DNA from: Eubacteriales bacterium
GTDB taxonomy: Bacteria > Bacillota > Clostridia > Oscillospirales > CAG-272
Direction of reading: 5' to 3'
Assembly: GCA_045126815.1 (NCBI GenBank)
Contig: JBGVPD010000075.1
Location: 1-63,786 of the forward strand
DNA length: 63,786 bases
Under the pieces are notes generated by a model. The model had not been told where the DNA came from. It saw nothing but the letters and a program-made list of their open reading frames with translations, and searched no databases. The position numbers and the translations under genes were made by a program. Below are positions 13,634 to 33,423 of the stretch, piece by piece (position 1 is the stretch's first letter; every line of letters starts with the position of its first letter).

Positions 13634-14242
13634 TTAGTTTTTTTCAATGATCTTTATATCAAGTGGATTAATTGCCGCTTGTTCGTAAACGATTTCTTTG
13701 ATTTGAGATATTTCGTTTGCTTGTAAACCGTCACTTTTTACTATGACGTTACATTTTCCTTCGCTGATAACTGCAACACATTCTTCAAATCCTTTTGAAG
13801 TGATGAGAGATTCTATGTTTGATTCTTTCTGCATATCATCGGCTATCTGCGACATTTGTTTTAATGCAGAATCTTTTGACTCAGCAAGAGCTTCTTCGTT
13901 TCCAACGACAATTTCAAGAACCTCCAAAGCTTCGTCTCTGGCTTTTTGTCTGTCTATTACAGCTTGAGCAAAATAATCGTTTTCCTCTAATGATGTGTTT
14001 ATTACGTTTGTCAGATCTTCACCGTTGTTTGTACCTGCATTTAAAGAAGCATCATCAAGAAAGAAAATGTAATTTAAATATACGGCAGCGCCGATCAAAA
14101 GAACCGAACATCCTATCATTACTTTCTTTTTATCAAGCTTCCAAAACTCCTTTTTTTTGATTTTTTCTTTAGTTTCCTTAAACTTCGTAGTTAACTGATT
14201 TCCAATATGTTTTGGACTGATGCAAAGTGATTTTATTTCCAT
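13634..14242 (-). CDS. spoIIIAH: Stage III sporulation protein AH
   Basis: Last gene of the spoIIIA operon. N-terminal TM, then DYFAQAVIDRQKARDEALE and a C-terminal KGFEECVAVISEGKCNVIVKSDGL ring-forming domain. Confidence 0.85.
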   Translation of the reverse strand: MEIKSLCISPKHIGNQLTTKFKETKEKIKKKEFWKLDKKKVMIGCSVLLIGAAVYLNYIFFLDDASLNAGTNNGEDLTNVINTSLEENDYFAQAVIDRQKARDEALEVLEIVVGNEEALAESKDSALKQMSQIADDMQKESNIESLITSKGFEECVAVISEGKCNVIVKSDGLQANEISQIKEIVYEQAAINPLDIKIIEKN

Positions 14243-14316
14243 TTTATGTTCCTCCCGGATTATTAAGTTTTGTTAAATTATATGATGAATGCTTGTATAT
14301 TATTACAATAAACATT

Positions 14317-14778
14317 TTATTCAGTTACATATACATGCGAACTGTATATACCTAGTACTGAGCATATAAGTTCGGTTATTTTTGATTTTATGTTTGGGTT
14401 GTTTCCTCCTTTACAGACAATTGCAACACCTTCTATTTGCGGAAGGTATTCTTTTATATATACAAGGCTGTCGTCAACAATTACATGTTTTTCATTTACT
14501 TCGTTACCGTCAGATGCATAAACAAATTCGGTACCGCTTTTAAGTGTTATCATAACTTTTGGCGCTGATACTCCGTCTATCTCTTCTATGAGATCTGCAA
14601 GTTTATTTTCGGTTTTAGAAGTGTAGTTTTCAATAAAATCTGTATAATCCGATGTATTTTTGTTGGTAGGCTTTTCTTCTTGTTTATCAGAAAAAACAAG
14701 AATAAGACCTAAAACCAGGCAAAATAACAGTATTAAAATCGCTTTTTTCTTTCTTATGTATTCACTTAACTTGATTAT
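14317..14778 (-). CDS. spoIIIAG: Stage III sporulation protein AG (start codon non-canonical or uncertain)
   Basis: The frame is open from 14778 and encodes a TM anchor (AILILLFCLVLGLILVF) and the motif EEIDGVSAPKVMITL. The only ATG/GTG/TTG in frame is internal, at 14553. GGAG sits 8 nt upstream of the ATA at 14778. Confidence 0.7.
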   Translation of the reverse strand: MIKLSEYIRKKKAILILLFCLVLGLILVFSDKQEEKPTNKNTSDYTDFIENYTSKTENKLADLIEEIDGVSAPKVMITLKSGTEFVYASDGNEVNEKHVIVDDSLVYIKEYLPQIEGVAIVCKGGNNPNIKSKITELICSVLGIYSSHVYVTE

Positions 14779-14783
14779 TTATA

Positions 14784-15254
14784 TCACTCCCGTATGTTTT
14801 GTGTTACTTCTATTTCAGCACCAAATTCAGAATTAAGATATGCGTTTATCCTCTCTGCATAACCGTTGTAACTTTTGTCTTTTATGCTAACTTTTATTTT
14901 ATTTATAATAATTTCTTCATCATCTTCTTGTATGTCGATTGCTAAAGAAATACTTTCTTGCGGAATATTAAATCGTTTTAGCAAATTGTCTTTAAGTGAT
15001 GTTTCAACTGTGTTTTTTATATACATATTTTGATCAATGTTTTGCTCTGTGTGGTTTAGTGTTAATGAATTAAAATTTAGCAGTTGTTTAATATCAGAAA
15101 CATTAAAAGTAGAAAAAATAGAGTATATCACAATAAGTGATACAATATATTTAACGTATTTTTGCAATTTCCCGTTTTGAAAAAAAGTATTTAGAGCCCC
15201 CATACATACCGATAAGGTTATCAGCATATACAGCCCCGTTTTAATGTTCGTCAT
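14784..15254 (-). CDS. spoIIIAF: Stage III sporulation protein AF
   Basis: Position in the operon; two N-terminal TM segments plus a soluble C-terminal domain; 156 aa. Confidence 0.75.
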   Translation of the reverse strand: MTNIKTGLYMLITLSVCMGALNTFFQNGKLQKYVKYIVSLIVIYSIFSTFNVSDIKQLLNFNSLTLNHTEQNIDQNMYIKNTVETSLKDNLLKRFNIPQESISLAIDIQEDDEEIIINKIKVSIKDKSYNGYAERINAYLNSEFGAEIEVTQNIRE

Positions 15255-15256
15255 AA

Positions 15257-16393
15257 TTACACCCCCAATGCAGGAGATATTGAAACAAATACCGTTAATT
15301 CAATGATAAACAAAACGGTTATACACACAATGATCGCTAATGCAAAATTAAATATAGAGCTGAATTCTTTCAGAAGATTACCCTCAGCATCGCAATCAAG
15401 TATATAGCAAATCGTACCGGTTATATCAATACAAAATTTGTTTAATATTATCTTTAAAATAACGGGTAGTGAAATGACAGATATGATCAATATACCTACG
15501 ATTCCGACAGAGTTTTTTATAACACTTAAAGCTGACATAACACTCCTTACAGATTCGCCGAGAGCTCCGCCGACAACAGGTATAAAACTTCCTGCAAATT
15601 TTACCGTTCGCGCCGCAGCACTGTCTGTGGCGAGTGATAAATTAGTTTTGAATATCAAAAATACTGAAAAAAGTGTCATAGTTCCTGCAAGGAAAAACGT
15701 CATAATATTTTTTATTACTTTGGTTAAATGAAAAAGACCTTTAATTTCCCCTGCAACAGAACTGAGAGTGAGAGCAAAACAGATTTTTAGCATAGGAAAA
15801 AGACCGCTGTTCATTAACATATTGATTAAATTTAATATAAAAGTTATACCAATTGAGTTTACGACGGCTGTTGATACGTTGCCGCCTGACGTATATAAAA
15901 CCGTCATTATAGGCACAAGGGAAGAGATGAAGACGTTTATACTTTTTATGTAAATTTGAACCGATGCCCATACCCCCGATAAAAGCTCGTAAAATATCAC
16001 CGATAAAACTATTTGGGAAACGTATTTTACTGCTTTTGAAAAAGTAGGTTTGCCTATACTCGTATTTATTGTATTTATGAGAGAAATAATTATAACTGTA
16101 CATATTAACGATGATAACGTTTTTAACGTAGGCGCGATCAGGGGATTAAAAATGTTTAGAAAAAGACGCCAAATAAACGAAATATTAAAACTGTTAGCTG
16201 TATTTAATAGATCCTGCTCGTTTGTTGAAGTGTCAGGAAAATAGTCTAACTGTTCTTCCGACAAAGTGTTATATAAACTTTGCAAATCCAATTCCTGTTT
16301 TATATACGAGTCGTTGAAAGCTGCGACATCTAGAGGTATTGCCAGTAAAAATAATACACAACATACACTTAATAATTTTATTTTTTTAAACAA
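15257..16393 (-). CDS. spoIIIAE: Stage III sporulation protein AE
   Basis: 378-aa polytopic membrane protein with a signal peptide, at the operon position between AD and AF. Confidence 0.85.
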   Translation of the reverse strand: MFKKIKLLSVCCVLFLLAIPLDVAAFNDSYIKQELDLQSLYNTLSEEQLDYFPDTSTNEQDLLNTANSFNISFIWRLFLNIFNPLIAPTLKTLSSLICTVIIISLINTINTSIGKPTFSKAVKYVSQIVLSVIFYELLSGVWASVQIYIKSINVFISSLVPIMTVLYTSGGNVSTAVVNSIGITFILNLINMLMNSGLFPMLKICFALTLSSVAGEIKGLFHLTKVIKNIMTFFLAGTMTLFSVFLIFKTNLSLATDSAAARTVKFAGSFIPVVGGALGESVRSVMSALSVIKNSVGIVGILIISVISLPVILKIILNKFCIDITGTICYILDCDAEGNLLKEFSSIFNFALAIIVCITVLFIIELTVFVSISPALGV

Positions 16394-16407
16394 TTTATTT
16401 AAACCTC

Positions 16408-16791
16408 TTAAAGCATAATTTCCTTCGTGATGGTCAGTATCTTTTCTATTAACGGTAAACTGATTACAAGTATTTCGATTTTAGCAATAAATTCAATTTT
16501 AGATGCAATTGACGATTCTCCGATATCACGGCATATATCGGAAGTTGTTTCGGCAACCAAGGTTATGCCGAATGTTTTCAGCAAAACATTCCCCCATTCT
16601 CCAAGGTATGTGTTTTCAAAAAACAAGGAATAAAGCTTCATATTTTGCCAAACGGTATTAAAGGCGTGTTTTAATAAAAGTATCCCAAAAAGTATACTTA
16701 AAAATATTGTATATTCACTTTTTAATTGGCGAAGCAGACTTAGAAGTGCTATAGCTATCAGGGTATATCCGGACAAAATAAAAATATTCAT
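16408..16791 (-). CDS. spoIIIAD: Stage III sporulation protein AD
   Basis: 127-aa four-TM protein; 1-nt overlap with the spoIIIAC stop. Confidence 0.85.
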   Translation of the reverse strand: MNIFILSGYTLIAIALLSLLRQLKSEYTIFLSILFGILLLKHAFNTVWQNMKLYSLFFENTYLGEWGNVLLKTFGITLVAETTSDICRDIGESSIASKIEFIAKIEILVISLPLIEKILTITKEIML

Positions 16792-16985
16792 CAGATACCG
16801 AATACGCTTTTTATAGTGTTTATAAGGTTTGAAATTTCTTGAACTAAAAGCATCAGAACGATAATTATGCCGGCGATCGAAACAAGCATAGCTTGTTCAT
16901 CGCGTCCGCTTTTGCCGAGTATCTGACACACGACACTAACAAGAAGTCCTGCCCCCGCAACCTTTAAAATAAGACTTATATCCAT
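16791..16985 (-). CDS. spoIIIAC: Stage III sporulation protein AC
   Basis: 64-aa two-TM protein (MDISLILKVAGAGLLVSVV...), typical of SpoIIIAC. Confidence 0.85.
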   Translation of the reverse strand: MDISLILKVAGAGLLVSVVCQILGKSGRDEQAMLVSIAGIIIVLMLLVQEISNLINTIKSVFGI

Positions 16986-17001
16986 ATGTTTACCTCTAAA
17001 T

Positions 17002-17478
17002 TCATATAAATAAAATTATTAACATTAGTCCCGAATAAATCGATAAAGCCATTGACAGTTTTATCTTATCGGGAGTTGTCAAAACCATTTCTTTATACTT
17101 TTCTTCAAGCATTTGCGTGTAATGGATGCTGTGTTTTAATTGCTCTTGTTTATTGGTCTTACCTAAATTTTCACCGTACTCCAACAATAAATCTCGTATA
17201 CTGTCGGGTAAATGATTACAGTTTGTCTCAAGAGATGATGCCCAACCGTTTTTTGAGATATTTTCAATAAGTTCTCTTATCTCGCATTCGTTTTTTTCTG
17301 CATATTTTTTATAAATTGCATCAAGAGGTGTATTAAAACATTCAATTTGCGTTTTTGTATAATACATAAAATTCAAAATATTTTTTATAAGAAAGAGTAT
17401 TCTTTTGGTTTTGTAAGAAGAGAATACCCCAAAGAAAATTACAGAACCAGCTAAAATTATAAGCCCTAAAGTTTTCAA
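17002..17478 (-). CDS. spoIIIAB: Stage III sporulation protein AB
   Basis: 158 aa with TM segments at both ends and the central motif GENLGKTNKQEQ. 4-nt overlap with spoIIIAA. Confidence 0.8.
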   Translation of the reverse strand: MKTLGLIILAGSVIFFGVFSSYKTKRILFLIKNILNFMYYTKTQIECFNTPLDAIYKKYAEKNECEIRELIENISKNGWASSLETNCNHLPDSIRDLLLEYGENLGKTNKQEQLKHSIHYTQMLEEKYKEMVLTTPDKIKLSMALSIYSGLMLIILFI

Positions 17479-18329
17479 AATGATATTTCCTTTCTTTTCT
17501 TATATTCAAATTGTCTCTCATTATTTTTTGAATATATACCGACGTAACTTTCAAAAACATTTAACTCGTGCATTTTTCGTATGTTTTTTCTTTGTAACAG
17601 ATCATCAATATTTTTTGCATGAGCTGTACATATGAGAGATATTCCACAATTTTTACATTCAATAAGTTCTTCAACATCATCATCTATTCCGATCTCGTCA
17701 CAGATTATAATTTCGGGCGACATATTTCGAACGGCTATATCGATCCCATTCTTTTTTGGGTATGAGAAAAAGAAATCAACAGGACACCCTTTATGTAGAC
17801 TATCTACGTATAACTCATTTTTACAATCGATAACAGATATTCTGTGGTTATACGGAGGAGTTGATAAAATCTTTATTATCATCTTTAGAAGAGTTGTTTT
17901 TCCGTAGTTTGGAGGAGAGTAAATAATACAGCTTTTATCATTAGCTATTTTCTTTAACAGGTACGGCGGTAGATCAAATTTTTGTCCGGGCACTCTTATA
18001 TTAATGCCGGTTATAGATGACAAATTCGTTATTATACCGTTTTCGGTAACGGCATTTCCGCACACACCGATCCTGTAACCGTTTTCAAAAGGAATATATC
18101 CGTTTTTTATGCAGTCGAAATATGTATAAACGGAATTTTTACAAAATTTATTTACTGAATATTCGATATCGTTTTTTGTTACTAAGTAGTCTGTAACAAG
18201 ATTTTGAGTTCCCGATGTTATACACAGGGGACATGATTGTCTTAATCTTATTTCGTTTACTAAAGAATATTCTTTTATCTTGTTTTTTACGTCTTCCGTC
18301 AGACATTCAAGTACAGAATTATCAATCAT
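17475..18329 (-). CDS. spoIIIAA: Stage III sporulation protein AA (secretion-type ATPase)
   Basis: Walker A PPNYGKTTLL and Walker B IIICDEIG. The track start GTG 18347 lies in or near the RBS AAAGGA; ATG 18329 (MIDNSV...) is preferred, and 18338 is also possible. Confidence 0.85.
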   Translation of the reverse strand: MIDNSVLECLTEDVKNKIKEYSLVNEIRLRQSCPLCITSGTQNLVTDYLVTKNDIEYSVNKFCKNSVYTYFDCIKNGYIPFENGYRIGVCGNAVTENGIITNLSSITGINIRVPGQKFDLPPYLLKKIANDKSCIIYSPPNYGKTTLLKMIIKILSTPPYNHRISVIDCKNELYVDSLHKGCPVDFFFSYPKKNGIDIAVRNMSPEIIICDEIGIDDDVEELIECKNCGISLICTAHAKNIDDLLQRKNIRKMHELNVFESYVGIYSKNNERQFEYKKRKEISF

Positions 18330-18351
18330 TTTTATCATTCCTTTCACAACA

Positions 18352-24862: not shown

Positions 24863-26071
24863 ATGCTTCCTGTTCGTCAAAAAGACAATCAAATAAAGGT
24901 TCAGGATAAGAAGAGTGTAAATCCGTATTATCTTGTAATGTCAGGCAGATTTAAGACCGCTAAATATATAACACTTTGCGTTCTTGTTTTGTTTTTGCTG
25001 ACGTCTGTTATTTTGTTCAGAAGCGAGATCACACTCGAGAATTTACGCTATCTTTTTAAGGATTTTGAGTTTGGAGATAACGTAAACGTAGGCGCGAACG
25101 ATACTATTACGTTCGACTCTGACGTACAAGTAAATTTCGATATGTTTAAAGGCGATCTTGTTATAGCCGGAAGTTCAAACTTTTATCTTACCGATTTGCA
25201 GGGAAACAAAAGACTTAACGAAAAAAGTATGTATTCAAATCCCGTTATAGTCAGTGGAGAAAAGTACTTACTTGTTTATGGGTTAAGTGAATACAGTTAC
25301 TCAATATATAACACGTTCTCGATGCTTCATACGGAAACTTTTGATTATCCGATTTCAGCTGCAGCTGTTAGCGACAAGGGAATGTATGCTATAGTTACAA
25401 GATCTGCAAAATATCGATCAGTAGTTCATTTATACAATGAAAACTTTGAATGTATAGGCGTTGTATCAAAGGATAAATACGTCATAGACGTTCAATTTAA
25501 CCAAAACAGTACCGAATTGCTTATTACATCCGTATTTTCAAAAGACGGAAAGTTCTGTACGGAGTTAGTAAATTATGCCCCGTATTCAGATAAGCACAAG
25601 TCGCTCGTTGAGGTTGAAAACTCTATGCCTTTAAAAACGGGTTATAACAGACACAACGGATATTCCATCGTGTTTGATAATAAAATAGAATTTTATAACA
25701 ATACCGCAAATTTAGTCAACACATTTGATTTTTCATCAGATATAATCCCCTTGGTTGTAGAGATATGCCAAGATTACACGATCATCGTATACAATAAAAA
25801 TATTGTAGGTGATGATATAGAAATTATGGTTTTTGACACAGATGGAAATCTGGTAAAAAGTACCGACGCAAACGGTCAGCCGAAAAAGATAAAACACTAT
25901 AAAGAAAGTATATATGTTTTGCTTGACGGCAATATTTGCAGATTTAATTTATCAGATAAATCAATACAGTATTTCAAAACAGAAAAAAATCCGTGTGATT
26001 TACATATAATAGATGAGAACACGGCTCTCGTATGTTTTTTAAATCACACCACGAAAGTAAATTTAGATTGA
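24863..26071 (+). CDS. Membrane-anchored hypothetical protein (possibly DUF5711-like repeat/beta-propeller ectodomain)
   Basis: 402 aa, a single N-terminal TM (ITLCVLVLFLLTSVILF), then beta-rich repeats. No catalytic motif recognised. Confidence 0.6.
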   Translation: MLPVRQKDNQIKVQDKKSVNPYYLVMSGRFKTAKYITLCVLVLFLLTSVILFRSEITLENLRYLFKDFEFGDNVNVGANDTITFDSDVQVNFDMFKGDLVIAGSSNFYLTDLQGNKRLNEKSMYSNPVIVSGEKYLLVYGLSEYSYSIYNTFSMLHTETFDYPISAAAVSDKGMYAIVTRSAKYRSVVHLYNENFECIGVVSKDKYVIDVQFNQNSTELLITSVFSKDGKFCTELVNYAPYSDKHKSLVEVENSMPLKTGYNRHNGYSIVFDNKIEFYNNTANLVNTFDFSSDIIPLVVEICQDYTIIVYNKNIVGDDIEIMVFDTDGNLVKSTDANGQPKKIKHYKESIYVLLDGNICRFNLSDKSIQYFKTEKNPCDLHIIDENTALVCFLNHTTKVNLD

Positions 26072-26089
26072 TTTGCGAAAGGATATTAT

Positions 26090-26767
26090 ATGGCTATTGC
26101 TCTTGATATAATTGTTCTTCTGATTGTATTGGCAACTTTTGTTTCTGTTGTTAAAAAGGGGTTTGTAAGAACGGTTCTTGACCTTGCTTCATTCATATGT
26201 GCATGGTTGGCTGCAAAATTCTTTTCTCCTTCGCTGTCAGGATTTTTCTACGACGGACTTTCAAAAAATATATCCGACAGTATAAACAGAGTTATTTCCG
26301 AACAGATCGAAAAAAACAGTTTACCTGAACCTTTATATGAAAATAATTTGTCAAACCTTCTTGATAGATATAACATAGACATTAATCTTGACTCTGTTAA
26401 CAATGCGGTTGACGGAGTAGTAGAAAACACGGTGCATACTATATCTAATTATTTAATATCGATTCTATCTTATGTACTTGCGTTTATAGTGATTTTTGTT
26501 TTGGTTTTGATTGCTTTCAAAATCGCATCAGTGTTATTGGGCGGTATCTTTAAGTTGCCCATACTTAACACGTTAAATAAAACGTTAGCTATTATACTTG
26601 CCATAATTATGTCAGTTGTATATTTGCTTTTGTTTATAGCTTTGATGCAGATAATTATGCCTTTTCTTATGTCTGTATATCCACAATCGTTTAATGATAC
26701 GGTTATTGGTAATACTGTGATATTTGAATATTTATATAACTTCGAATGGCTTAAATTTTTTTGTTAA
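26090..26767 (+). CDS. cvpA: CvpA-family membrane protein
   Basis: N-terminus DIIVLLIVLATFVSVVKKGFVRTVLDLASFI is typical of CvpA. Four TM segments. Confidence 0.8.
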   Translation: MAIALDIIVLLIVLATFVSVVKKGFVRTVLDLASFICAWLAAKFFSPSLSGFFYDGLSKNISDSINRVISEQIEKNSLPEPLYENNLSNLLDRYNIDINLDSVNNAVDGVVENTVHTISNYLISILSYVLAFIVIFVLVLIAFKIASVLLGGIFKLPILNTLNKTLAIILAIIMSVVYLLLFIALMQIIMPFLMSVYPQSFNDTVIGNTVIFEYLYNFEWLKFFC

Positions 26768-26785
26768 ATTATTATAGGTGATATT

Positions 26786-29101
26786 ATGGAATTGTGTGCA
26801 AGATGCAAAAAAAGAGTAGCGGTTGTTTTTGTATCAAGAATAGAAAACGGAGAAACGATAAACGAGGGAATTTGCCTTAAATGTGCAAGAGAACTTGGAA
26901 TCAAACCCGTTAATGATATAATCGAAAAAATGGGATTAACCGACGATGATTTAGATCAAATGGATTCTGAAATGGAAAGTATATTTTCATCTGCCGAAGA
27001 AGAGGGATTTGATGAAAATGATACCGATGAAAATCAAGAAGGAAGAGCCCCCGCTTTTGATCTGAGAAAAATGTTCGGTGCATTTCCGGTAAGCAACTCT
27101 CGTCCCGATAATAACGGTGAGAGCGATAATGCAAAAAATACAAAAAAAGACAAGAAAGACAAAAAGAAAAGCGGAAAATTTATACCACAGTATTGTCTGG
27201 ATTTAAATGAACGGGCAAAAAACGGTAAGATAGACAGAGTTATAGGCAGGGAAGACGAACTTGCGCGAGTAACGCAGATACTTTGCAGAAGACAAAAAAA
27301 TAACCCTTGCTTAATAGGTGAACCTGGAGTAGGTAAAACGGCAATTGCTGAGGCTTTGGCTCTTAAGATCGTTTCAGGCGACGTTCCTTTTAAACTTAAA
27401 AACAAAGAACTACAGTTGCTTGATTTGACAGCACTTGTAGCAGGTACTCAATTCAGAGGTCAATTTGAACAACGCATGAAAGGTCTCATCGAAGAAGTCA
27501 AGGCAAAAGGAAATGTTATCCTTGTTATTGACGAGGTGCACAGTATTGCAGGTGCAGGAGATGCGGAAGGCAGTATGAACGCTGCTAATATACTTAAACC
27601 CGCACTTTCAAGAGGAGAAATTCAGGTTATCGGCGCTACAACCTTAAAAGAATACAGGAAATATATAGAAAAAGATTCTGCGCTCGAAAGAAGGTTTCAG
27701 CCTGTAGTCGTTGAAGAATCATCTGTTGAAGACTCAATTGAAATTTTGAAGGGAATTAAATCATATTACGAGGAATTTCACGGCATAAAAATCCCCAATG
27801 AAGTTCTAAAACAAACAGTTGTTCTTTCAGAAAGATATATAACTGATAGATTTTTACCCGATAAGGCAATAGATCTTCTTGATGAAGCCGCATCGTATCT
27901 TGTTCTGAATACACCTATTATAGATGAATTATCATTACTGAAACAAAGACTCGATAATTTAGCTATTGAGAGGGAAGAGTTAGAAGCATTAGAACCCCAA
28001 AATGAAGAAGAAACTGCAGATAAATACAAAAAATTAGCTGATATAAAAGTAGACGAGATGAATACGCGTCCCAAGATAGAAGAACTTGAGGAGAAGTGCG
28101 ACAAAATCAAGCTTTCCTTGGGGGATTTGGCGTGTGTTATCGAAAGATGGACAGGAGTTCCTGCAAGTAAAATTACATCAGTTGAATTCGAAAGACTAAA
28201 CGGACTTGAAGAAAGACTTAAAAGAAGAATTGTCGGTCAAGATAAAGCTGTTGAGGCGATAGTACGCGCAATCAAGAGAAACAGGGCAGGGGTTTCTTAT
28301 AAAAAGAAACCTGTATCCTTTATCTTTGCCGGACCTACGGGCGTTGGAAAAACAGAGCTTGTAAAAACATTGGCTATGGATATGTTTGACACACCCGAAT
28401 CAATAATCAGACTTGATATGTCCGAGTTTATGGAAAAGCATTCAGTTTCAAGGATCATCGGAGCTCCCCCCGGATATGTCGGTTATGATGAAGCCGGACA
28501 GCTTACAGAAAAAATCAGACGTAAGCCTTATTCGGTTGTCCTTTTTGATGAGATAGAAAAAGCTCATCCTGATGTTTTGAATATTATGCTTCAAATCCTT
28601 GATGATGGTATTGTGACAGATGCACAGGGAAGAAAAGTTAATTTTGAAAACACTATTATAGTTATGACAACAAACGCGGGTTCTGATATAAGCTTGAATT
28701 CAGCCGGATTTTCTATGTCTTCACAGTCACAATCCGAAGACAGAACACAAAAGGCACTTCTAAGCTTCTTACGCCCCGAATTTATAAACCGTGTTGATGA
28801 GATCATCGTATTCAGACAGCTTGATGAACATGATTTTGAAAAAATAGCTGTTATTATGCTTAAAGATCTTGTTTCAGTTATCGAAGATAAAGGAATTACC
28901 CTTAAATACAATGATGACTTGATTTCTTATATAGCAAAAGAATCTTTTAGCGTTAAATTCGGCGCAAGAAATATGCGAAGATTTATCCAAAAACATATTG
29001 AAGACGAGATTGCAGAATGTATTATAAGAAATTATTCACAAAATATATCTGAGATAGAAGTCGAAGTTATCGGTGATAAGATCGATGTAAAAATTATTTA
29101 A
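26786..29101 (+). CDS. ClpE-like AAA+ Clp ATPase with N-terminal zinc ribbon (two AAA modules)
   Basis: CARCKK...CLKCAR zinc ribbon replaces the Clp_N repeats. D1 has GEPGVGKT, D2 has GPTGVGKTE, a short coiled-coil lies between them, and there is an AGF ClpP-docking-like loop. Confidence 0.9.
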   Translation: MELCARCKKRVAVVFVSRIENGETINEGICLKCARELGIKPVNDIIEKMGLTDDDLDQMDSEMESIFSSAEEEGFDENDTDENQEGRAPAFDLRKMFGAFPVSNSRPDNNGESDNAKNTKKDKKDKKKSGKFIPQYCLDLNERAKNGKIDRVIGREDELARVTQILCRRQKNNPCLIGEPGVGKTAIAEALALKIVSGDVPFKLKNKELQLLDLTALVAGTQFRGQFEQRMKGLIEEVKAKGNVILVIDEVHSIAGAGDAEGSMNAANILKPALSRGEIQVIGATTLKEYRKYIEKDSALERRFQPVVVEESSVEDSIEILKGIKSYYEEFHGIKIPNEVLKQTVVLSERYITDRFLPDKAIDLLDEAASYLVLNTPIIDELSLLKQRLDNLAIEREELEALEPQNEEETADKYKKLADIKVDEMNTRPKIEELEEKCDKIKLSLGDLACVIERWTGVPASKITSVEFERLNGLEERLKRRIVGQDKAVEAIVRAIKRNRAGVSYKKKPVSFIFAGPTGVGKTELVKTLAMDMFDTPESIIRLDMSEFMEKHSVSRIIGAPPGYVGYDEAGQLTEKIRRKPYSVVLFDEIEKAHPDVLNIMLQILDDGIVTDAQGRKVNFENTIIVMTTNAGSDISLNSAGFSMSSQSQSEDRTQKALLSFLRPEFINRVDEIIVFRQLDEHDFEKIAVIMLKDLVSVIEDKGITLKYNDDLISYIAKESFSVKFGARNMRRFIQKHIEDEIAECIIRNYSQNISEIEVEVIGDKIDVKII

Positions 29102-29117
29102 AGAGAGAATTTAAACA

Positions 29118-31904
29118 ATGAACGAAAGATGGTACGACAAAACTGTCGCTCAAATTGAAGAAATATTAAATACAAATTCAAATACCGGTCTTTCGTCGAC
29201 TGTTATTAAAACCAGATTAAAGACCGATGAACCTAACGTAGTTTATCCTATAAAGCACCACTCGCTTGAAGCTTGTTTTAAGAAAATCATCTCTGAACCT
29301 GCTACTGCCTTGCTGTTTATAATTGCAATTATAGCAGCTTGGCTTAATCAGAGCATGATTGCGCTTGTAATCGTATCCTTGTTGGCGTTTAATATGATAG
29401 TCTCCGTTATAATGTACAACAAGGCATACCGCATTATTGAAGATATGAGTAAGCTCTCATTACCTACCAGCAAGGTTATGAGAAATGGCAAAATGTATCT
29501 TGTAAAAAGCGAACAACTGCTTCAAGGTGATGTTATATATCTGTCTGTTGGCGATATCGTTCCTGCTGACGCTAGAATAATCGAATGTGACAGTTTACAG
29601 GTTCTTGAAGTTAACGTAACAGGTGAAATAAAACCTACCGAAAAAGACCAATATTTCCTCAGATACACCCATGACGTTCCTCCGGCACAACAAGCTAATA
29701 TGCTTTTTGCATCATCTATTGTGATAAAAGGAACTGCAAAAGCGATATGTTGCTGTATGGGCGAAGATACTCTTGTAACCAAATTGAGAAAGAATAAGTA
29801 TTTGGCAAACTACGACGATTTAAAAGCTCTTTCAACTGTAAAAAAATACAGCAAATGGTGGTATTTAGCTTCAATCGCTTTAGTATTTCTTATTGTAGTC
29901 CTTGAGATAGCATTCTCCTCATCAACCAGAGCTTTTGTTGATATCTTTATTACGGCTTTGTCGTTTGCTGCAGCAACAGTAAGTGAGTTTTTAATACTTT
30001 CATCCTACGTTATTGTAGGTAACGGTTTGTTTTCTGCAGTAAAACAGAACAAAAATATAAACTCGGGCGCTCTGATAAAAAACATATCAAAAATTGAGAA
30101 TTTAAAAGACATTTCTTGTCTCATAGTACACAAAGAGGGCGCTTTTTCGGTTCGTGATGCAAAGGTTGAAAAAGTGTATGTAAATAACACCTTGTATACG
30201 GATGGGGAAGTGCACTTCACTGAAAACGCCTCGAGAGTACTCAGATTTGCACTTATTTCTACCGGTCTATACGGCGCAGGGAAACTTATAAAAAACAATT
30301 TAAACAATGAAAATATTTATACCGCCGAAGAAGATGCAATTATATCTATTGCTCAAAAATCGAAGGTGTATAATATCAAGTTAGACCAATCATATCCGAT
30401 CCTTGAACACGTTGGCATAGGCGAGACAAGCAGATTTGAAACGACGTTAGTTAATTCAAAACACGGGTATACAGTCGCTTGCAGAGGTAATTTAGATAAA
30501 ATATTATCTTGTTGTTCTTCGTATTGTGAAAACGGCAAGAACTATCCTCTTGATGCTGATAAAAAGACCGAAATATATTCAGAAGCTATTAATTTATGCA
30601 GAAAATCTTATAGAATTATTGCTATCGCTTCAAAACAGACACATTATAACACTTTAAAAAGGATCATTTCTTGCCAATCTGAAATGACATTTGAAGGTTT
30701 TATTGCTATCCGTGAGCGTATGCTGCCGGGAGCTGCCAAGAATATATCTGACTGTCTGGCTGCAGGTATTAAAATAATTATGCTTACAGAGGACGTAGGT
30801 GAACATAACAAATCCCTTGCCGAATCTTTGGGGATAATTAAGGATAAATCAGAGATCATAACCGGAAACAGTCTTTCTTATATGAGAGATGATATGTTCC
30901 ACACAAACACGTCTATTTATAGGCTTTATCAAGGTCTCAACATTTTTCAAAAGCGTAAACTTGTTGAATATCTACATGATGAAGGTGAAATTGTTGGTGT
31001 TTTGGCTCGCGAACTTGATGAGATAATACTCCTAAAAGAAGCTGACGTCGGCTTTGTTCAAAGCACTATTTTATCGGGTAAATTAGACAGGAGAGGATTA
31101 GATATTACATTGGCAAAACACACGAACTCTCCCATGCTGATCAAAAACTCTAAGGATAGCAAGAAGACGGGCACAGAAGCTCTGAAATTCATTTCCGATG
31201 TAATTATATCCGATGCAGATAAACGCGGAAATGGTGGTTTTAATGCTATGTTAAATGCAGTAAAATCATCAAAAATTATATATAAAAATATAGTCAGATT
31301 CATAAAATATATCCTTACAACCAATGTTGCGCGCTTATTTTTGATCTTATTTACAATTTTTACCAAATCGGATTTGTTTACACCTGTTCAAATTTTGTTC
31401 ACAGGTTTAGTGATCGATTATATAGCTATGGTCATTATAGCGTTTGAAAATGCAAGTAATAAAGAAACGTTAAAAAAAGAGAACAACGAAGATTTGTCTA
31501 CAATACAGGCAAAATTACCTCTATGTATTGTCTGGGGGCTTGTGTGTGGATTAACGTTGGCATCTACGCCGTATTTACTTAATCTAATGGGCTTTACGTC
31601 AACGCACATTAAAAGCACGGTAATTTTCCTAGGATTTATTTTTACACAAATTGCTGTATTAAATGAAGTTATAAAAGATGATAGTATGTTTAAACCTTTG
31701 GTAAGATACAACCGAGCACATCTTATATTAATAATTTTATTAGTCGGATTTTTACCGATAATAAATTTTGTACCAACGGTTGCTAAATTATTTGGCACAA
31801 CACAGATTGGAGTTATTCCGTATATAGTATCTTTAATACCTTCGATAATAATAATTATAGTATTTGAGATCCATAAATGGTTTACCAACTCAAGCAAGGA
31901 TTAG
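29118..31904 (+). CDS. P-type ATPase homolog with degenerate catalytic motifs (probable pseudo-ATPase)
   Basis: 928 aa, collinear with the ATPase at 3067-5709. Motif changes: DKTGT to HKEGA (30129-30143), TGES to TGEI, PEGL to SEFL, TGD to TED, GDGVNDAP to ARELDEII. The ORF is intact with an RBS 16 nt after the clpE-like stop. Confidence 0.85.
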   Translation: MNERWYDKTVAQIEEILNTNSNTGLSSTVIKTRLKTDEPNVVYPIKHHSLEACFKKIISEPATALLFIIAIIAAWLNQSMIALVIVSLLAFNMIVSVIMYNKAYRIIEDMSKLSLPTSKVMRNGKMYLVKSEQLLQGDVIYLSVGDIVPADARIIECDSLQVLEVNVTGEIKPTEKDQYFLRYTHDVPPAQQANMLFASSIVIKGTAKAICCCMGEDTLVTKLRKNKYLANYDDLKALSTVKKYSKWWYLASIALVFLIVVLEIAFSSSTRAFVDIFITALSFAAATVSEFLILSSYVIVGNGLFSAVKQNKNINSGALIKNISKIENLKDISCLIVHKEGAFSVRDAKVEKVYVNNTLYTDGEVHFTENASRVLRFALISTGLYGAGKLIKNNLNNENIYTAEEDAIISIAQKSKVYNIKLDQSYPILEHVGIGETSRFETTLVNSKHGYTVACRGNLDKILSCCSSYCENGKNYPLDADKKTEIYSEAINLCRKSYRIIAIASKQTHYNTLKRIISCQSEMTFEGFIAIRERMLPGAAKNISDCLAAGIKIIMLTEDVGEHNKSLAESLGIIKDKSEIITGNSLSYMRDDMFHTNTSIYRLYQGLNIFQKRKLVEYLHDEGEIVGVLARELDEIILLKEADVGFVQSTILSGKLDRRGLDITLAKHTNSPMLIKNSKDSKKTGTEALKFISDVIISDADKRGNGGFNAMLNAVKSSKIIYKNIVRFIKYILTTNVARLFLILFTIFTKSDLFTPVQILFTGLVIDYIAMVIIAFENASNKETLKKENNEDLSTIQAKLPLCIVWGLVCGLTLASTPYLLNLMGFTSTHIKSTVIFLGFIFTQIAVLNEVIKDDSMFKPLVRYNRAHLILIILLVGFLPIINFVPTVAKLFGTTQIGVIPYIVSLIPSIIIIIVFEIHKWFTNSSKD

Positions 31905-32094: not shown

Positions 32095-32171
32095 GGGGGC
32101 ATAGCTCAGCTGGTTAGAGTGTATGCTTGACATGCATAAGGTCATTGGTTCGATTCCAATTGTCCCCACCA
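32095..32171 (+). tRNA. tRNA-Val (anticodon GAC), CCA encoded
   Basis: Full cloverleaf: acceptor GGGGGCA/TGTCCCC, D-arm GCTC..GAGT, anticodon stem TATGC/GCATA with loop TTGACAT, T-arm ATTGG-TTCGATT-CCAAT, then ACCA. Confidence 0.95.
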
Positions 32172-32179
32172 ATAAAAAA

Positions 32180-32205
32180 ACAGGCTTTATCAGCCTGTTT
32201 TTTTA
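32180..32205. terminator. Bidirectional terminator (tRNA-Val and the DUF1015 gene)
   Basis: ACAGGCT / AGCCTGT stem flanked by A7 and T7. Confidence 0.85.
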
Positions 32206-33423
32206 TTTTATTTTTCTGCATTCAAGATAATACCTTTTATCTCTCGCTTCACCCATTGAAAAAGTTTTTCTCGGAAGCGCTCCCGTGTTTTTTACTGTTT
32301 CGAATAAAGTATCTTTTGTTATTCCGTCGTACAAGAAACCGATCGTATTTTTTTCTTTAGATAATTTCTTTACATCGCTTATACCGTGGATATAATCCAC
32401 TTTGCATTTAGGGTTATTTGAGATATAATCGTCAATAAATTCCTGAATAATACCGGTAGATATCTTATCAGACGGTATATTTATACCAACACTTCCCTCT
32501 ATGTCTCCATAGACATATTTTATAGTTGAGTTTGGTAATTCTTTATTAAAGAAACCGTGCATTTTTTCTATTACGTCAGTTGGATCAACATTAAACAACA
32601 CTCTATATATAGGCTCAAAATCAAGTGCTTCTGAGTGTATATTGCCAACTTCTGCCAATGCGTATCTTGCAGGATGTTCTAAAACTTTGTCGATATTCTG
32701 TTTTTTTAGCTGTTCATAACACTCTTTAGCGGTTGCCAACGAATGATTACCGTCACCTACTGCAAATAGTAACGGGTTATTTTCTGCATTGTATAATTCA
32801 GCGAGACCGTTAATAATATTTTCTTGCTCTTCTTTGTTTAATAGATAACCGGTAATATGTCCGCCACCCATAATTAAATCAAAGTCGTACAATTTTGTCA
32901 TATTATCTTTTTTGTTTTTTAGAGGCTCAATAATCTTTTTGTTTACGTCATCAATAAGCAACATTATGTGAGGAAGTTCCAAAGGAGCGTTTTTTCTGAT
33001 CTTTACTCTTGGAGGAATTCTTTCAAGAACAGTTCCCTCCGTCGCTCTGATAGGTGTGTCAGCACACTTGCTGTAATCATAAGCTTCAAGATCAACAGCT
33101 CCTATAATTCCCTGCCTTAAACGACCGTCGGCTTGAATTCTTTCTATATAAATGATTGCATCTTCATAAGAATTAAATACCGAGTCTTCTAGATAACGTT
33201 TCATTTCGCTATTTATAATATCAATTCGATTTGAAACATCATCATCTTCAAGATATATTTCAGGGAGAGTTATTTTTAACGTAGAAAAATTATCTCCTAC
33301 AATTTTTTTGGTTTCTTCCCAGTATTCTTTATCGCTTGTAAATTGGTCGCATGCAATTACAGCCCATTTCTCGAAGTTATTCTTTGGTAAAAGAATGTTG
33401 GTAGATTTAAATGGGATCGACAT
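32203..33423 (-). CDS. DUF1015-family protein (function unknown)
   Basis: 406 aa. The pattern GRLRQGIIGAVDLEAYDY...RATEGTVLERI...LELPHIMLLIDD and GDGNHSLATAK resembles the DUF1015 HExT / (A)DGHHR signature. Confidence 0.65.
   Translation of the reverse strand: MSIPFKSTNILLPKNNFEKWAVIACDQFTSDKEYWEETKKIVGDNFSTLKITLPEIYLEDDDVSNRIDIINSEMKRYLEDSVFNSYEDAIIYIERIQADGRLRQGIIGAVDLEAYDYSKCADTPIRATEGTVLERIPPRVKIRKNAPLELPHIMLLIDDVNKKIIEPLKNKKDNMTKLYDFDLIMGGGHITGYLLNKEEQENIINGLAELYNAENNPLLFAVGDGNHSLATAKECYEQLKKQNIDKVLEHPARYALAEVGNIHSEALDFEPIYRVLFNVDPTDVIEKMHGFFNKELPNSTIKYVYGDIEGSVGINIPSDKISTGIIQEFIDDYISNNPKCKVDYIHGISDVKKLSKEKNTIGFLYDGITKDTLFETVKNTGALPRKTFSMGEARDKRYYLECRKIK

Follow-up and report, generated by a model that had tools for sequence, protein, structure and literature searches.

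Organization of the locus

The window, by which we mean the whole 63,786-nucleotide stretch of DNA analyzed, encodes two P-type ATPase homologs: a genuine P2A pump and, on the opposite strand, a protein in which the catalytic motifs of these enzymes are replaced (referred to here as the pseudo-ATPase). The pseudo-ATPase gene lies at the end of a conserved block, ecfA-ecfA′-ecfT-truA-DUF5711-(cvpA)-clp-pseudoATPase. Coordinates are listed in Table 1.

Table 1. Genes and sequence features of the window discussed in the text
Feature	Residues	Nucleotide positions	Strand	Remarks
Genuine P2A (SERCA/LMCA1/YloB-like) Ca2+-ATPase paralog, comparator		3067-5709	-	880 aa; all catalytic motifs
DUF5711		24863-26071	+	Part of conserved block
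CvpA-family membrane protein		26090-26767	+	Part of conserved block
ClpE-like AAA+ unfoldase		26786-29101	+	771 aa; directly 5′ of pseudo-ATPase, same orientation
AGAGAGA purine-rich run		29102-29108	+	Weak Shine-Dalgarno-like; 10 nt 5′ of pseudo-ATPase ATG
Pseudo-P-type ATPase ORF	1-928	29118-31904	+	ATG to TAG; 928 aa; 10 TM helices plus A, P, and N domains
A-domain TGEI	168-171	29619-29630	+	For dephosphorylation motif TGES
M4 SEFL	289-292	29982-29993	+	For PEGL; Pro and Gly lost; Glu290 at SERCA Glu309 position
Former phosphorylation site CLIVHKEGAFS	334-344	30117-30149	+	For ICSDKTGTLT; His338 (CAC, 30129-30131) at phospho-Asp position
N-domain RGNLD	456-460	30483-30497	+	For KGAPD; SERCA Lys515 to Arg
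P-domain LTEDV	556-560	30783-30797	+	For ITGDH (TGD hinge)
P-domain ARELDEII	630-637	31005-31028	+	For GDGVNDAP (Mg2+ site)
Family-specific P-domain insertion	648-705	31059-31232	+	Low-confidence basic loop at residues 660-680
M5 TTNVAR		31317-31334	+	Arg739 at SERCA Glu771 (Ca2+ site I) position
M6 GLVID		31404-31418	+	Gly763 replaces Asn796; Asp767 at Asp800 position

The pseudo-ATPase reading frame starts 16 nt past the clp stop codon (positions 29099 to 29101). An earlier note on this DNA had credited the gene with its own ribosome-binding site; a Shine-Dalgarno-like sequence does exist, but it is merely the AGAGAGA run within the 16-nt gap. In relatives of the gene, either the GGAG site is clearer or the start codon overlaps the clp stop. 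No terminator was found in the 16-nt gap, and the pseudo-ATPase is most likely cotranscribed with clp rather than expressed as an independent unit. The GC content of the gene equals that of its surroundings, and both GC and GC3 match those of neighboring genes; we therefore rejected horizontal transfer. PADLOC defense-system models gave no match for the pseudo-ATPase, DUF5711, or CvpA proteins and only generic AAA+ matches for Clp, and a role as an anti-phage system was rejected for lack of a pseudo-ATPase match. CtsR control of the clp operon was likewise discarded, since a search of the window for CtsR boxes came up empty. Neighboring spoIIIA genes had made a link to sporulation a candidate, but the flanks compared at the other loci ended short of that region.

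The pseudo-ATPase keeps the fold of a P2A pump but not its catalytic motifs

BLASTP aligned the pseudo-ATPase with its genuine paralog end to end at 23% identity (E = 6e-63), consistent with the collinearity described in the earlier note, from which a quoted 40-mer corresponds to residues 118 to 157. In Pfam scans the protein matched E1-E2_ATPase (2.8e-24), Cation_ATPase_C (8e-18), and Cation_ATPase_N (9e-7), with no match to the HAD hydrolase model (PF00702) and an N-domain match below its cutoff. Against the NCBIfam P-type ATPase model TIGR01494, it scored 57.0, below the cutoff of 62.3, whereas the paralog scored 310; scores against the Ca-ATPase equivalogs were 168 to 192, versus cutoffs of 703 to 798. 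Ten hydrophobic segments were counted in the sequence, with transmembrane helices at approximately residues 57 to 75, 80 to 98, 250 to 268, 276 to 294, 731 to 749, 757 to 775, 800 to 818, 834 to 852, 867 to 885, and 897 to 915. An AlphaFold (AF2) model predicted the P-type fold with confidence (pLDDT, 86.2; pTM, 0.83) and kept the M4 helix break, at residues 287 and 288. The model is E1-like: Foldseek TM-scores were 0.76 to 0.78 to E1 states (8iwp, 3w5b, and 4kyt) and approximately 0.50 to 0.54 to E2 states, a preference that may reflect a bias of AlphaFold. The nearest folds were SPCA1, SERCA, and LMCA1, with E values of ~1e-44 to SPCA1, SERCA, and Na,K-ATPase. Thus, the domain matches, model, fold comparison, and hydrophobic segments all describe a 10-TM (type II) bundle with cytoplasmic A, P, and N domains.

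The closest known systems are the P2A Ca2+-ATPases (LMCA1 [Listeria lmo0841], SPCA1, SERCA, and the Bacillus subtilis YloB type), both by sequence (family HMM, 3e-102 against LMCA1 and 2e-93 against SPCA1) and by fold (TM-score, 0.73 to 0.79). Common to these pumps and the pseudo-ATPase are the 10-TM bundle, the A/P/N domain order, the A-domain core GDxxxxxxGDxVPADxR, the M4 Glu, and the M6 Asp. Unlike the pumps, the pseudo-ATPase has a P-domain insertion of 50 to 60 residues, followed directly by an inserted Gly-Gly (residues 706 and 707) that is present in 86 to 92% of its clade (see below) and absent from genuine pumps.

The paralog carries ICSDKTGTLT, TGES, PEGL, KGAPD, TGDH, and GDGVNDAP, all of which are gone from the pseudo-ATPase. 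Each replacement quoted in the earlier note, including the His codon at the position of the phosphorylated Asp, was verified by coordinates. His338 stands opposite the phospho-Asp in the BLASTP alignment, in a MAFFT alignment of 120 homologs, and in an alignment of the family HMM with LMCA1, where the family consensus is Pro. No Asp of the pseudo-ATPase was in register with the phospho-Asp in these three independent alignments; since BLASTP, MAFFT, and HMMER agree, we rejected the idea that another register hides an Asp. The features that mark a functional P-type ATPase, namely the DKTGT Asp, TGES, and the HAD site formed by TGD and GDGxNDxP, are thus all absent. Because the phospho-Asp, TGES, the Mg2+ and hinge motifs, and PEGL are lost, the E1P/E2P cycle and ion pumping are predicted to be impossible, and the protein is very probably a non-pumping pseudoenzyme, the dead descendant of a P2A (LMCA1/SPCA/SERCA-type) Ca2+ pump. 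This subfamily retains several residues of the N and P domains (Arg for Lys515, Arg560, Glu442, Lys352, Asp627, and Lys684), and with these the pseudo-ATPase may bind nucleotide without hydrolyzing it.

Motif loss is shared by a clade under purifying selection

Among the best 150 representatives of clusters at 50% identity, 143 were full-length sequences, and 116 of these lacked the motifs. All 116 come from uncultured Clostridia, and a neighbor-joining tree set them clearly apart from the 27 genuine pumps; the close family alone comprises 96 clusters at 90% identity. The pseudo-pump family is far larger and older than a single paralog. DKTGT was absent from every relative of the pseudo-ATPase down to 23% identity. 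At the phospho-Asp column, clade members have Pro (50 sequences), Cys (12), Ser (8), His (6), or other residues, including Arg and Leu, with Asp in ~3%; even close relatives have Pro or Asn. The TGES Glu is retained in 8 of 116 sequences, in a highly variable column, and the former catalytic site as a whole shows no conservation across the clade. As to whether HKEGA-type loss is conserved, then, the loss of DKTGT is common to all relatives down to 23% identity, but the HKEGA-type motif is not kept, and constraint is found instead at the membrane ion site.

For the pair formed by the pseudo-ATPase and its relative L001, dN/dS was 0.057 (0.040 for the neighboring clp gene), and values of 0.152 and 0.052 were obtained in two other independent lineages. 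The reading frame was uninterrupted in 26 of 27 sequences examined. By domain, dN/dS was 0.03 for A, 0.03 for N, 0.02 to 0.05 for most of P (rising to 0.085 over the final 30 residues), and 0.15 for M5 to M10; constraint is thus tightest on the cytoplasmic headpiece rather than on the C-terminal helices. Catalytic residues have thus been lost from a protein that is nonetheless conserved and under purifying selection, as in a pseudoenzyme. The suggestions that the gene is maintained rather than decaying and that it encodes a transport-dead derivative of a cation pump are both borne out by the clade-wide loss of DKTGT and the other motifs, dN/dS values of 0.05 to 0.15 in three independent pairs, intact reading frames, and a confident P-type fold. 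Proteins of this kind, very probably catalytically dead and with a presumably new membrane role, are present in many uncultured gut and rumen Clostridia.

A basic residue and an Asp mark the former Ca2+ site

A P2A Ca2+ site is built from Glu309, Asn768, Glu771, Asn796, Thr799, and Asp800 (SERCA numbering). Only the equivalents of Glu309 and Asp800 remain in the pseudo-ATPase; the other positions have Arg, Gly, or hydrophobic residues (hydrophobic at Thr799), with Gln in most of the clade. The Glu771 position is basic (Arg or Lys) in 113 of 116 clade members, whereas it is Glu in 26 of the 27 nearest genuine pumps. Gly occupies the Asn796 position in 114 of 116 clade members, Asp is kept at Asp800 in 113, and Glu is kept at Glu309 in 95. 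The three sequences that lack the basic M5 residue also lack the M6 Asp.

A built-in Arg-Asp pair has probably replaced the Ca2+ site, a contact deduced from the homologous Glu771 and Asp800 positions of SERCA and from covariation in only three sequences. Arg739 of M5 would pair with the retained Asp767 of M6, and probably also with Glu290 of M4, so that an internal cation fills the former Ca2+ site. We infer that this intramembrane salt bridge is the real signature of the clade. It would fix the transmembrane bundle in a single conformation, which the model shows as E1-like, or at most leave a proton-titratable switch.

Built-in cations occur in active P-type pumps, for example, Arg655-Asp684 of the plant H+-ATPase AHA2, Arg795 of LMCA1, Lys791 of the gastric H,K-ATPase, and Lys693-Asp714 of ZntA. 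The proposed likeness lies in the ion cavity, where the M5 region contributes a basic side chain beside an M6 Asp. In those pumps, however, the pair serves an ATP-driven cycle; the pseudo-ATPase has lost that cycle, and what its clade mainly conserves is the pair itself. The clade would offer a clear-cut case of a Ca2+ site supplanted by a built-in Arg.

Association with a ClpE-like gene

The protein encoded upstream resembles ClpE, the zinc finger Hsp100/Clp protein of Bacillota, in having an invariant N-terminal CxxC...CxxC zinc ribbon in place of Clp_N, two AAA+ modules, and a conserved xGF loop. It differs in the first residue of this loop: at the ClpP-docking position, the ClpE-like proteins read AGF, VGF, or PGF, whereas the canonical ClpP-binding loop is [LIV]-G-[FL]. 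None of the curated NCBIfam models reached its cutoff on this protein. We know of no membrane partner of ClpE.

A clp gene lay directly 5′ of the pseudo-ATPase gene at 22 of 24 loci (18/20, plus 4/4 distant loci) and 5′ of a genuine pump gene at 0 of 68. The intergenic gap was 16 to 127 nt, and the two genes overlapped at two loci (L091 and L092). At least 24 metagenomic loci had the zinc ribbon clp gene and the same upstream block (MTase-ecfAAT-truA-DUF5711) with no pseudo-ATPase downstream. Hence, Clp does not need the pseudo-ATPase, and obligate pairing was rejected from the Clp side. Since the upstream block contains unrelated housekeeping genes, adjacency to clp may simply be inherited gene order. 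Pairwise distances of Clp and pseudo-ATPase proteins were weakly correlated (Spearman, 0.25), so that this test of vertical coinheritance was not decisive. A linker motif in Clp (APAxD versus TATFPF) tracks the presence or absence of the pseudo-ATPase, a pattern confounded by phylogeny. We regard a functional link between the two proteins as tentative, and the Clp partnership as a lead, not a result.

Proposed function of the pseudo-ATPase

The best reading of the pseudo-ATPase is as a noncatalytic membrane scaffold or regulator. The earlier note had proposed a scaffold, sensor, or receptor; of these, a receptor is unlikely because the protein has no ectodomain. The headpiece would act through protein-protein contacts or through a conformational switch of the cytosolic domains, anchored in the membrane. 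The weakest step is the proposal that the ClpE-like unfoldase is the most probable partner or client, for example, by being tethered or gated at the membrane; it is suggested by the position of the pseudo-ATPase as the last gene of a tight operon-like block, immediately after clp and sometimes translationally coupled to it. Taken whole, the reading of a dead P2A pump with a built-in Arg-Asp site that serves as a membrane scaffold or regulator, with Clp as its most probable partner, stands for us in even balance. A more specific version is rather unlikely: protons, ions, or voltage would act on an intramembrane Arg-Asp(-Glu) switch, which would move the headpiece and thereby dock, release, or gate the cotranslated ClpE-type unfoldase. 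Contact could be made, for example, through the N-terminal Clp linker motif, which takes one form where the genome carries the pseudo-pump and another where it does not. If this is true, a dead ion pump would for the first time have given rise to a membrane adaptor or sensor of a Clp machine.

An alternative that we consider unlikely is a passive or gated ion pathway, most plausibly for protons, or an ion, pH, or voltage sensor, independent of Clp. Here the Glu of M4, the Arg of M5, and the Asp of M6 would together be titratable, much like the Asp-Arg site of P3A proton pumps, and the headpiece would be a plug or transducer. An M5 Arg and an M6 Asp form the proton acceptor/donor arrangement of plant and fungal H+-ATPases, and LMCA1 has an Arg in site I. 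The only polar residues conserved throughout the clade lie in the ion site (Glu/Arg/Asp in 86 of 116 sequences and Glu/Lys/Asp in 8), the M4 helix break is preserved, and the occurrence of Clp without the pseudo-ATPase means that its function need not involve Clp. However, the strongest constraint falls on the cytosolic domains rather than on M5 to M10, and with the Pro and Gly of PEGL, Asn768, Asn796, and Thr799 replaced, most liganding groups are gone.

It is improbable that the pseudo-ATPase pairs with a genuine P2A pump, such as its paralog in the window, in a regulatory or structural role resembling that of a dead subunit in a dimeric pump. Bacterial P-type pumps can dimerize, and MgtA dimer structures were among the fold matches, but 23 kb separates the two genes, which lie on opposite strands and have no common operon, and no genuine pump was found in the 6- to 10-kb flanks of 24 pseudo-ATPase loci. 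Far less probable still is an ATPase or transporter that remains active by noncanonical chemistry, with His338 as phosphoacceptor: His could accept a phosphoryl group, and the motif still has its Lys339 and Gly341 in this subfamily, but the variable His338 column led us to reject it as an alternative nucleophile, none of TGES, TGD, and GDGxND survives and their positions vary, and there is no HAD match. That the gene is simply a pseudogene in decay, or an artifact of annotation or assembly, is scarcely credible and effectively refuted, since the loss of every catalytic motif, an evolutionary rate ~3-fold that of clp, and absence of the gene from many related lineages are outweighed by intact 2.8-kb frames here and in relatives, low dN/dS, conserved family-specific motifs, a confident fold, and native GC content.

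Relation to other degenerate P-type ATPases

Few membrane enzymes have been studied as thoroughly as the P-type ATPases. Our literature searches, the scope of which excluded TCDB and the FUPA families of Chan et al. (2010), found no published bacterial pseudo-P-type ATPase, and a search on DUF5711 found nothing relevant. A keyword scan of a 2023 field-wide review of P-type ATPases found no mention of catalytically dead members (PMC10654040). Within the reach of these searches and that scan, the remark that no characterized bacterial family of this kind was known agrees with what we found.

Two eukaryotic systems come near. Human TMEM94/ERMA has a P-type-like 10-TM, three-domain architecture; in one cryo-electron microscopy study, TGES was missing and neither ATPase activity nor Mg2+ binding was found (PMC12134183), whereas another group reported an active endoplasmic reticulum Mg2+ ATPase (PMC13322241), so that its catalytic competence is disputed. 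Unlike the pseudo-ATPase, TMEM94 is much larger and still has its proposed phospho-Asp, D417. It was not among the top Foldseek matches of our model, and no specific relationship was seen. Plasmodium guanylate cyclase GCbeta contains a degenerate P4-ATPase-like domain, which is fused to a cyclase and of P4 flippase descent, whereas the pseudo-ATPase is stand-alone, bacterial, and of P2A descent.

A dead-pump family of this size, stand-alone and kept by selection, would be a natural experiment on what the E1/E2 scaffold can do without phosphorylation, and the conserved pairing with a ClpE-like gene yields a directly testable hypothesis of membrane-linked proteolysis in Oscillospiraceae-like bacteria. 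Annotation pipelines label the pseudo-pumps "cation-transporting P-type ATPase"; cation pumps are therefore overcounted when transport and metabolism are reconstructed for Clostridia of the gut and rumen.

A P-type ATPase homolog without catalytic motifs

The pseudo-ATPase aligns from end to end with the genuine P-type ATPase encoded in the same window (BLASTP; 23% identity, E = 6e-63), as the earlier note had described. The motifs ICSDKTGTLT, TGES, PEGL, KGAPD, TGDH, and GDGVNDAP are all present in the paralog; every replacement that the note had reported for them in the pseudo-ATPase, and the uninterrupted 2.8-kb frame, were verified by coordinates. Pfam matches were obtained to E1-E2_ATPase (2.8e-24), Cation_ATPase_C (8e-18), and Cation_ATPase_N (9e-7); there was no Pfam match to HAD hydrolase, and the N-domain model scored under its cutoff. 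The general P-type model of NCBIfam, TIGR01494, gave a score of 57.0 for the pseudo-ATPase (cutoff, 62.3) versus 310 for the paralog. Ten hydrophobic segments lie at the positions expected for M1 to M10. GC and GC3 contents equal those of the neighboring genes and hence give no hint of a recent transfer. The ribosome binding site that the note had assigned to the gene amounts to no more than a purine run. The start codon lies 16 nt past the stop codon of the ClpE-like gene, and no terminator was found between the two genes.

Positions of features in the window and in related loci
Feature	Position	Strand	Remarks
Pseudo-ATPase ORF	29118-31904	+	Uninterrupted, 928 codons
A-domain stretch quoted in the earlier note	aa 118-157 of pseudo-ATPase		40 residues
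TGEI	aa 168-171 of pseudo-ATPase
SEFL	aa 289-292 of pseudo-ATPase
CLIVHKEGAFS	aa 334-344 of pseudo-ATPase
His338	30129-30131		Codon CAC
RGNLD	aa 456-460 of pseudo-ATPase
LTEDV	aa 556-560 of pseudo-ATPase
ARELDEII	aa 630-637 of pseudo-ATPase
Genuine P-type ATPase	3067-5709	-	880 codons
AGAGAGA	29102-29108		Purine run
ClpE-like gene	26786-29101	+	Directly 5' of pseudo-ATPase
DUF5711 and CvpA-family genes	24863-26767	+
tRNA-Val (GAC)	32095-32171	+	3' of pseudo-ATPase
Bidirectional terminator	32171-32207		16-bp stem, directly after tRNA-Val; shared with convergent DUF1015 gene
DUF1015 gene	32203-33423	-
spoIIIA operon	13634-18347	-	Divergent from ruvC; small ORFs between named genes
SpoIIIAA	17475-18347	-
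SpoIIIAE	15257-16393	-
SpoIIIAH	13634-14242	-
PF01996 protein	56554-57753	+	399 aa
Clp gene, locus L003	5626-7931		Split into 516-aa and 218-aa ORFs
Clp gene, locus L004	5637-7931		Intact, 764 aa
PRC-barrel gene, locus L090	10744-11037		97 aa
PRC-barrel gene, locus L091	10373-10666		97 aa
P0241 gene, locus L173	679-3315

A family of degenerate homologs

Among 5.8 billion proteins searched, 96 clusters belonged to the family, with identities between 99% and 29% and scores between 2006 and 406 bits; beyond these, scores fell sharply to those of genuine pumps (~25% identity, ~220 bits). In a MAFFT alignment, DKTGT was present in none of the 96 clusters but in all genuine hits. We also searched 1.84 billion representatives, clustered at 50% identity, exhaustively with an HMM and took the best 150 hits. 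A total of 143 were full length; 116 of these lacked both DKTGT and GDGxND, and the other 27 were canonical pumps. We concluded that the pseudo-ATPase is a member of a family and not an accident. In a neighbor-joining tree, a single branch separated the 27 genuine pumps from all 116 degenerate proteins, and the degenerate proteins had a root-to-tip length ~3.5 times that of the pumps (1.98 versus 0.57), although this simple distance tree has an assumed root and may be subject to long-branch effects. Among the matches listed, all named sources were metagenome-assembled genomes recovered from the gut, the rumen, or digesters and labeled Clostridia, Oscillospiraceae, Ruminococcus, Eubacteriales, or Lachnospiraceae, with no cultured carrier among them. 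Family proteins carry the public names [quoted passage not shown] and “cation-transporting P-type ATPase,” the latter of which is misleading.

The earliest-branching degenerate protein, P0241, also has the shortest branch. It keeps an Asp in CVDAEG, along with IPKGL, VGAPE, and GVDD, and already has the M5 Lys and M6 Gly described below. Its gene lies on a contig of 50% GC and has no Clp gene beside it. P0241 is either a transitional form or a case of independent partial degeneration.

The former catalytic site varies, and the ion site is remodeled

Loss of DKTGT extends through the family, whereas the HKEGA-type motif highlighted in the earlier note is conserved solely in the window's subfamily (xVPKEGAFS, where P, H, or N stands in for the former Asp). 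Distant subfamilies have VFCGSSFFK, LINSTTVLK, or IICGNSALQ, among others. Across the 116 degenerate proteins, the phospho-Asp column contains mainly P (50), C (12), S (8), H (6), R (6), and L (6), the Glu of TGES is retained in 8, and the Asp703 column (SERCA numbering) has S in 35 and R in 27. The pseudo-ATPase lacks catalytic, phosphatase, and Mg2+ site residues and, judging from these residues, is very unlikely to form a phosphoenzyme or pump ions.

The membrane ion site, in contrast, carries a sharp clade signature. At the M5 Glu771 position, 102 of the 116 degenerate proteins have Arg and 11 have Lys, versus Glu in 26/27 of the nearest genuine pumps. The M6 Asn796 position is Gly in 114/116 (Asn in 27/27 genuine pumps), and M5 Asn768 is replaced by Gln in 84/116 (Asn in 26/27 genuine pumps). 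Asp is kept at the M6 Asp800 position (113/116 versus 27/27), as is Glu at the M4 Glu309 position (95/116 versus 27/27); the M6 Thr799 position is hydrophobic in the degenerate clade and Thr in 24/27 genuine pumps. The M6 Asp is missing from exactly those three sequences that have no basic M5 residue. These three (P0268, P0275, and P0278) are placed close to the base of the clade and may represent a different type of dead pump.

In SERCA, Glu771 and Asp800 jointly ligate the site I Ca2+, and Glu309 caps site II. Hence, an Arg at position 771 would reach Asp800. We infer that a built-in cation neutralizes the former Ca2+ site; in the window protein, Arg739 and Asp767 (with Glu290) probably form an intramembrane salt bridge in its place. 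Comparable basic residues are known from active pumps (Arg655, with Asp684, in AHA2; Arg795 in LMCA1; Lys791 in H,K-ATPase).

Other clade-specific features are an inserted Gly-Gly at amino acids 706 to 707 (in 86 to 92% of members) and a basic insertion of 50 to 60 amino acids in the P domain. Some members of 970 to 1319 amino acids (within P0039 to P0096) have C-terminal cytosolic tails of 45 to 400 amino acids that are acidic, basic, and of low complexity; the window protein lacks one. A short motif recurs in the tails (e.g., LFADFDLESFI, LFESFDLDEFI, or LFRDFDLAAVF). It loosely resembles APAFDLRKMF in the Clp linker, possibly by chance.

Predicted structure and selection

An AlphaFold2 model built from a 71-sequence family alignment had a mean pLDDT of 86.2 and a pTM of 0.83, with low confidence limited to the loop at amino acids 660 to 680 and two short linkers. 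Foldseek matched it to SPCA1, LMCA1, SERCA, Na,K-ATPase, and MgtA in the PDB (E of ~1e-44). TM-scores were 0.76 to 0.78 for E1-state structures (SPCA1 CaE1 [8iwp], SERCA E1.Mg2+ [3w5b], and SERCA-phospholamban [4kyt]) and ~0.50 to 0.54 for E2 and E2P states. In sequence, the family HMM was nearest to LMCA1 (3e-102) and SPCA1 (2e-93). Together, these matches indicate a P2A Ca2+-pump descendant with a complete fold. The model is E1-like, which is weak evidence for the state of the protein since AlphaFold may prefer one state.

The pseudo-ATPase is under strong purifying selection. Between the window gene and its relative at locus L001 (87% amino acid identity), dS was 1.3 and dN/dS was 0.057; the neighboring Clp genes gave 92% identity, a dS of 1.2, and a dN/dS of 0.040. 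Two further pairs of pseudo-ATPases gave dN/dS values of 0.152 (L006 and L014; 82% identity, dS of 0.66) and 0.052 (L013 and L099; 94% identity, dS of 0.65). An intact ORF of at least 896 amino acids was found in 26/27 sequences examined, in line with the earlier note's view that the gene is maintained rather than decaying. By domain, dN/dS for the window gene and L001 was 0.028 for A, 0.030 for N, 0.02 to 0.05 for most of P (0.085 for its last 30 residues), and 0.148 for M5 to M10; column conservation across the family ranked the domains in the same order. Thus, the cytoplasmic headpiece is the most constrained part of the protein despite having no catalytic residues.

Association with a ClpE-like gene

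The pseudo-ATPase is the last gene of a tightly spaced, same-strand array (ruvC, ruvA, ruvB, SAM methyltransferase, ecfA, ecfA', ecfT, truA, DUF5711, cvpA, Clp/Hsp100, and pseudo-ATPase). The 771-amino-acid Clp protein is ClpE-like. Its N terminus carries an invariant CxxC...CxxC zinc ribbon where Clp_N would be, and it also has two AAA+ modules and an [AVP]GF loop that is conserved. A Clp gene lies directly upstream in 18/20 pseudo-ATPase loci and in 4/4 very distant members (23 to 26% identity to the window protein), versus 0/68 genuine-pump loci. The gaps are 16 to 127 nt, except at L091 and L092, where the stop codon of Clp and the start codon of the pseudo-ATPase overlap; genes on the 3' side vary between loci. 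We concluded that the pseudo-ATPase follows a ClpE-like gene in an operon-like arrangement.

We sampled from the Clp side by scanning metagenomes with the zinc-ribbon region as the query. The pseudo-ATPase was downstream at 7 loci and missing from at least 24 loci, each with at least 1.5 kb of downstream sequence, many of the 24 coming from a single abundant species and being nearly identical. Most of the loci without the pseudo-ATPase still have the methyltransferase-ecf-truA-DUF5711 block upstream. Hence, the Clp gene is not dependent on the pseudo-ATPase, which is an accessory gene in one large set of lineages, and the conserved adjacency may in part reflect an inherited order of genes. The N-terminal linker of Clp reads G[RK][AT]P[AP]xD (longer form, G[RK][AT]P[AP]xD-x[KR]xF) in 23/23 genomes with the pseudo-ATPase and [KR]TATFPF (longer form, [KR]TATFPFLN[KR]LF) in 11/13 genomes without it; L123 has the former motif yet no pseudo-ATPase within 8 kb. 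This difference may reflect phylogeny, since the group without the gene looks like one sister clade, or co-adaptation. The pseudo-ATPase evolves ~3 times faster than Clp, and their pairwise distances are weakly correlated.

The Clp gene is split at L003 and intact at the near-identical L004, probably through an assembly frameshift; the pseudo-ATPase is intact at both. The DUF5711 and CvpA-family genes lie 5' of Clp in most related loci, with or without the pseudo-ATPase; CvpA is absent from some (e.g., L007 and L008), and at L091 a CDP-alcohol phosphatidyltransferase gene is inserted before Clp. No NCBIfam model names either protein of the window, and a literature search on DUF5711 found nothing relevant. 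Directly 3' of the pseudo-ATPase, two distant lineages (L090 and L091) encode a PRC-barrel protein of the sporulation-associated YlmC/YmxH-like family, and L089 and L092 instead encode a ParA/Mrp-like ATPase.

Possible functions and precedents

We regard the pseudo-ATPase as a non-catalytic membrane protein that is predicted to be co-expressed with a ClpE-like unfoldase. It would serve as a membrane-anchored scaffold, a regulator, or a conformational sensor, acting by way of the conserved headpiece. The earlier note's overall interpretation is supported; of the roles it proposed, that of a receptor is unlikely to be an extracellular one, since there is no ectodomain and the extracellular loops are short. 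That the unfoldase is a partner or client is a tentative suggestion, given the adjacency and the Clp loci without the pseudo-ATPase. Somewhat less likely is that the protein uses the Glu/Arg/Asp site to conduct protons or ions, or to act as a sensor, independently of Clp. A role as the dead partner of a genuine pump, one of which is encoded elsewhere in the window, is improbable. Non-canonical catalysis is very improbable with the former active-site columns so varied, and a pseudogene, given the low dN/dS values and intact frames, is the least credible reading.

By descent and fold, the pseudo-ATPase belongs to the P2A branch of the P-type ATPase superfamily; on every functional criterion of membership it falls outside. 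Conceptual precedents come from eukaryotes. TMEM94, which has a P-type-like architecture, lacked TGES, ATPase activity, and Mg2+ binding in one cryo-EM study (PMC12134183), although its inactivity is disputed by another group (PMC13322241), and Plasmodium GCbeta has a degenerate P4-ATPase-like domain (PMC6592433). No bacterial dead P-type ATPase was described in the literature searched or turned up when a field-wide review from 2023 was scanned by keyword, which agrees with the earlier note's knowing of no such characterized family; the clade may be listed as an uncharacterized “FUPA” family. The clade is best described as one of stand-alone bacterial pseudo-pumps with a predicted built-in Arg-Asp site.

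Other features of the window

The spoIIIA operon indicates that the organism is an endospore former. In this Clostridia genome, the window also encodes a match to F420-0:gamma-glutamyl ligase (PF01996, 6e-58) that contains a large insertion, residues 14 to 392 of the protein aligning to a 218-position profile.
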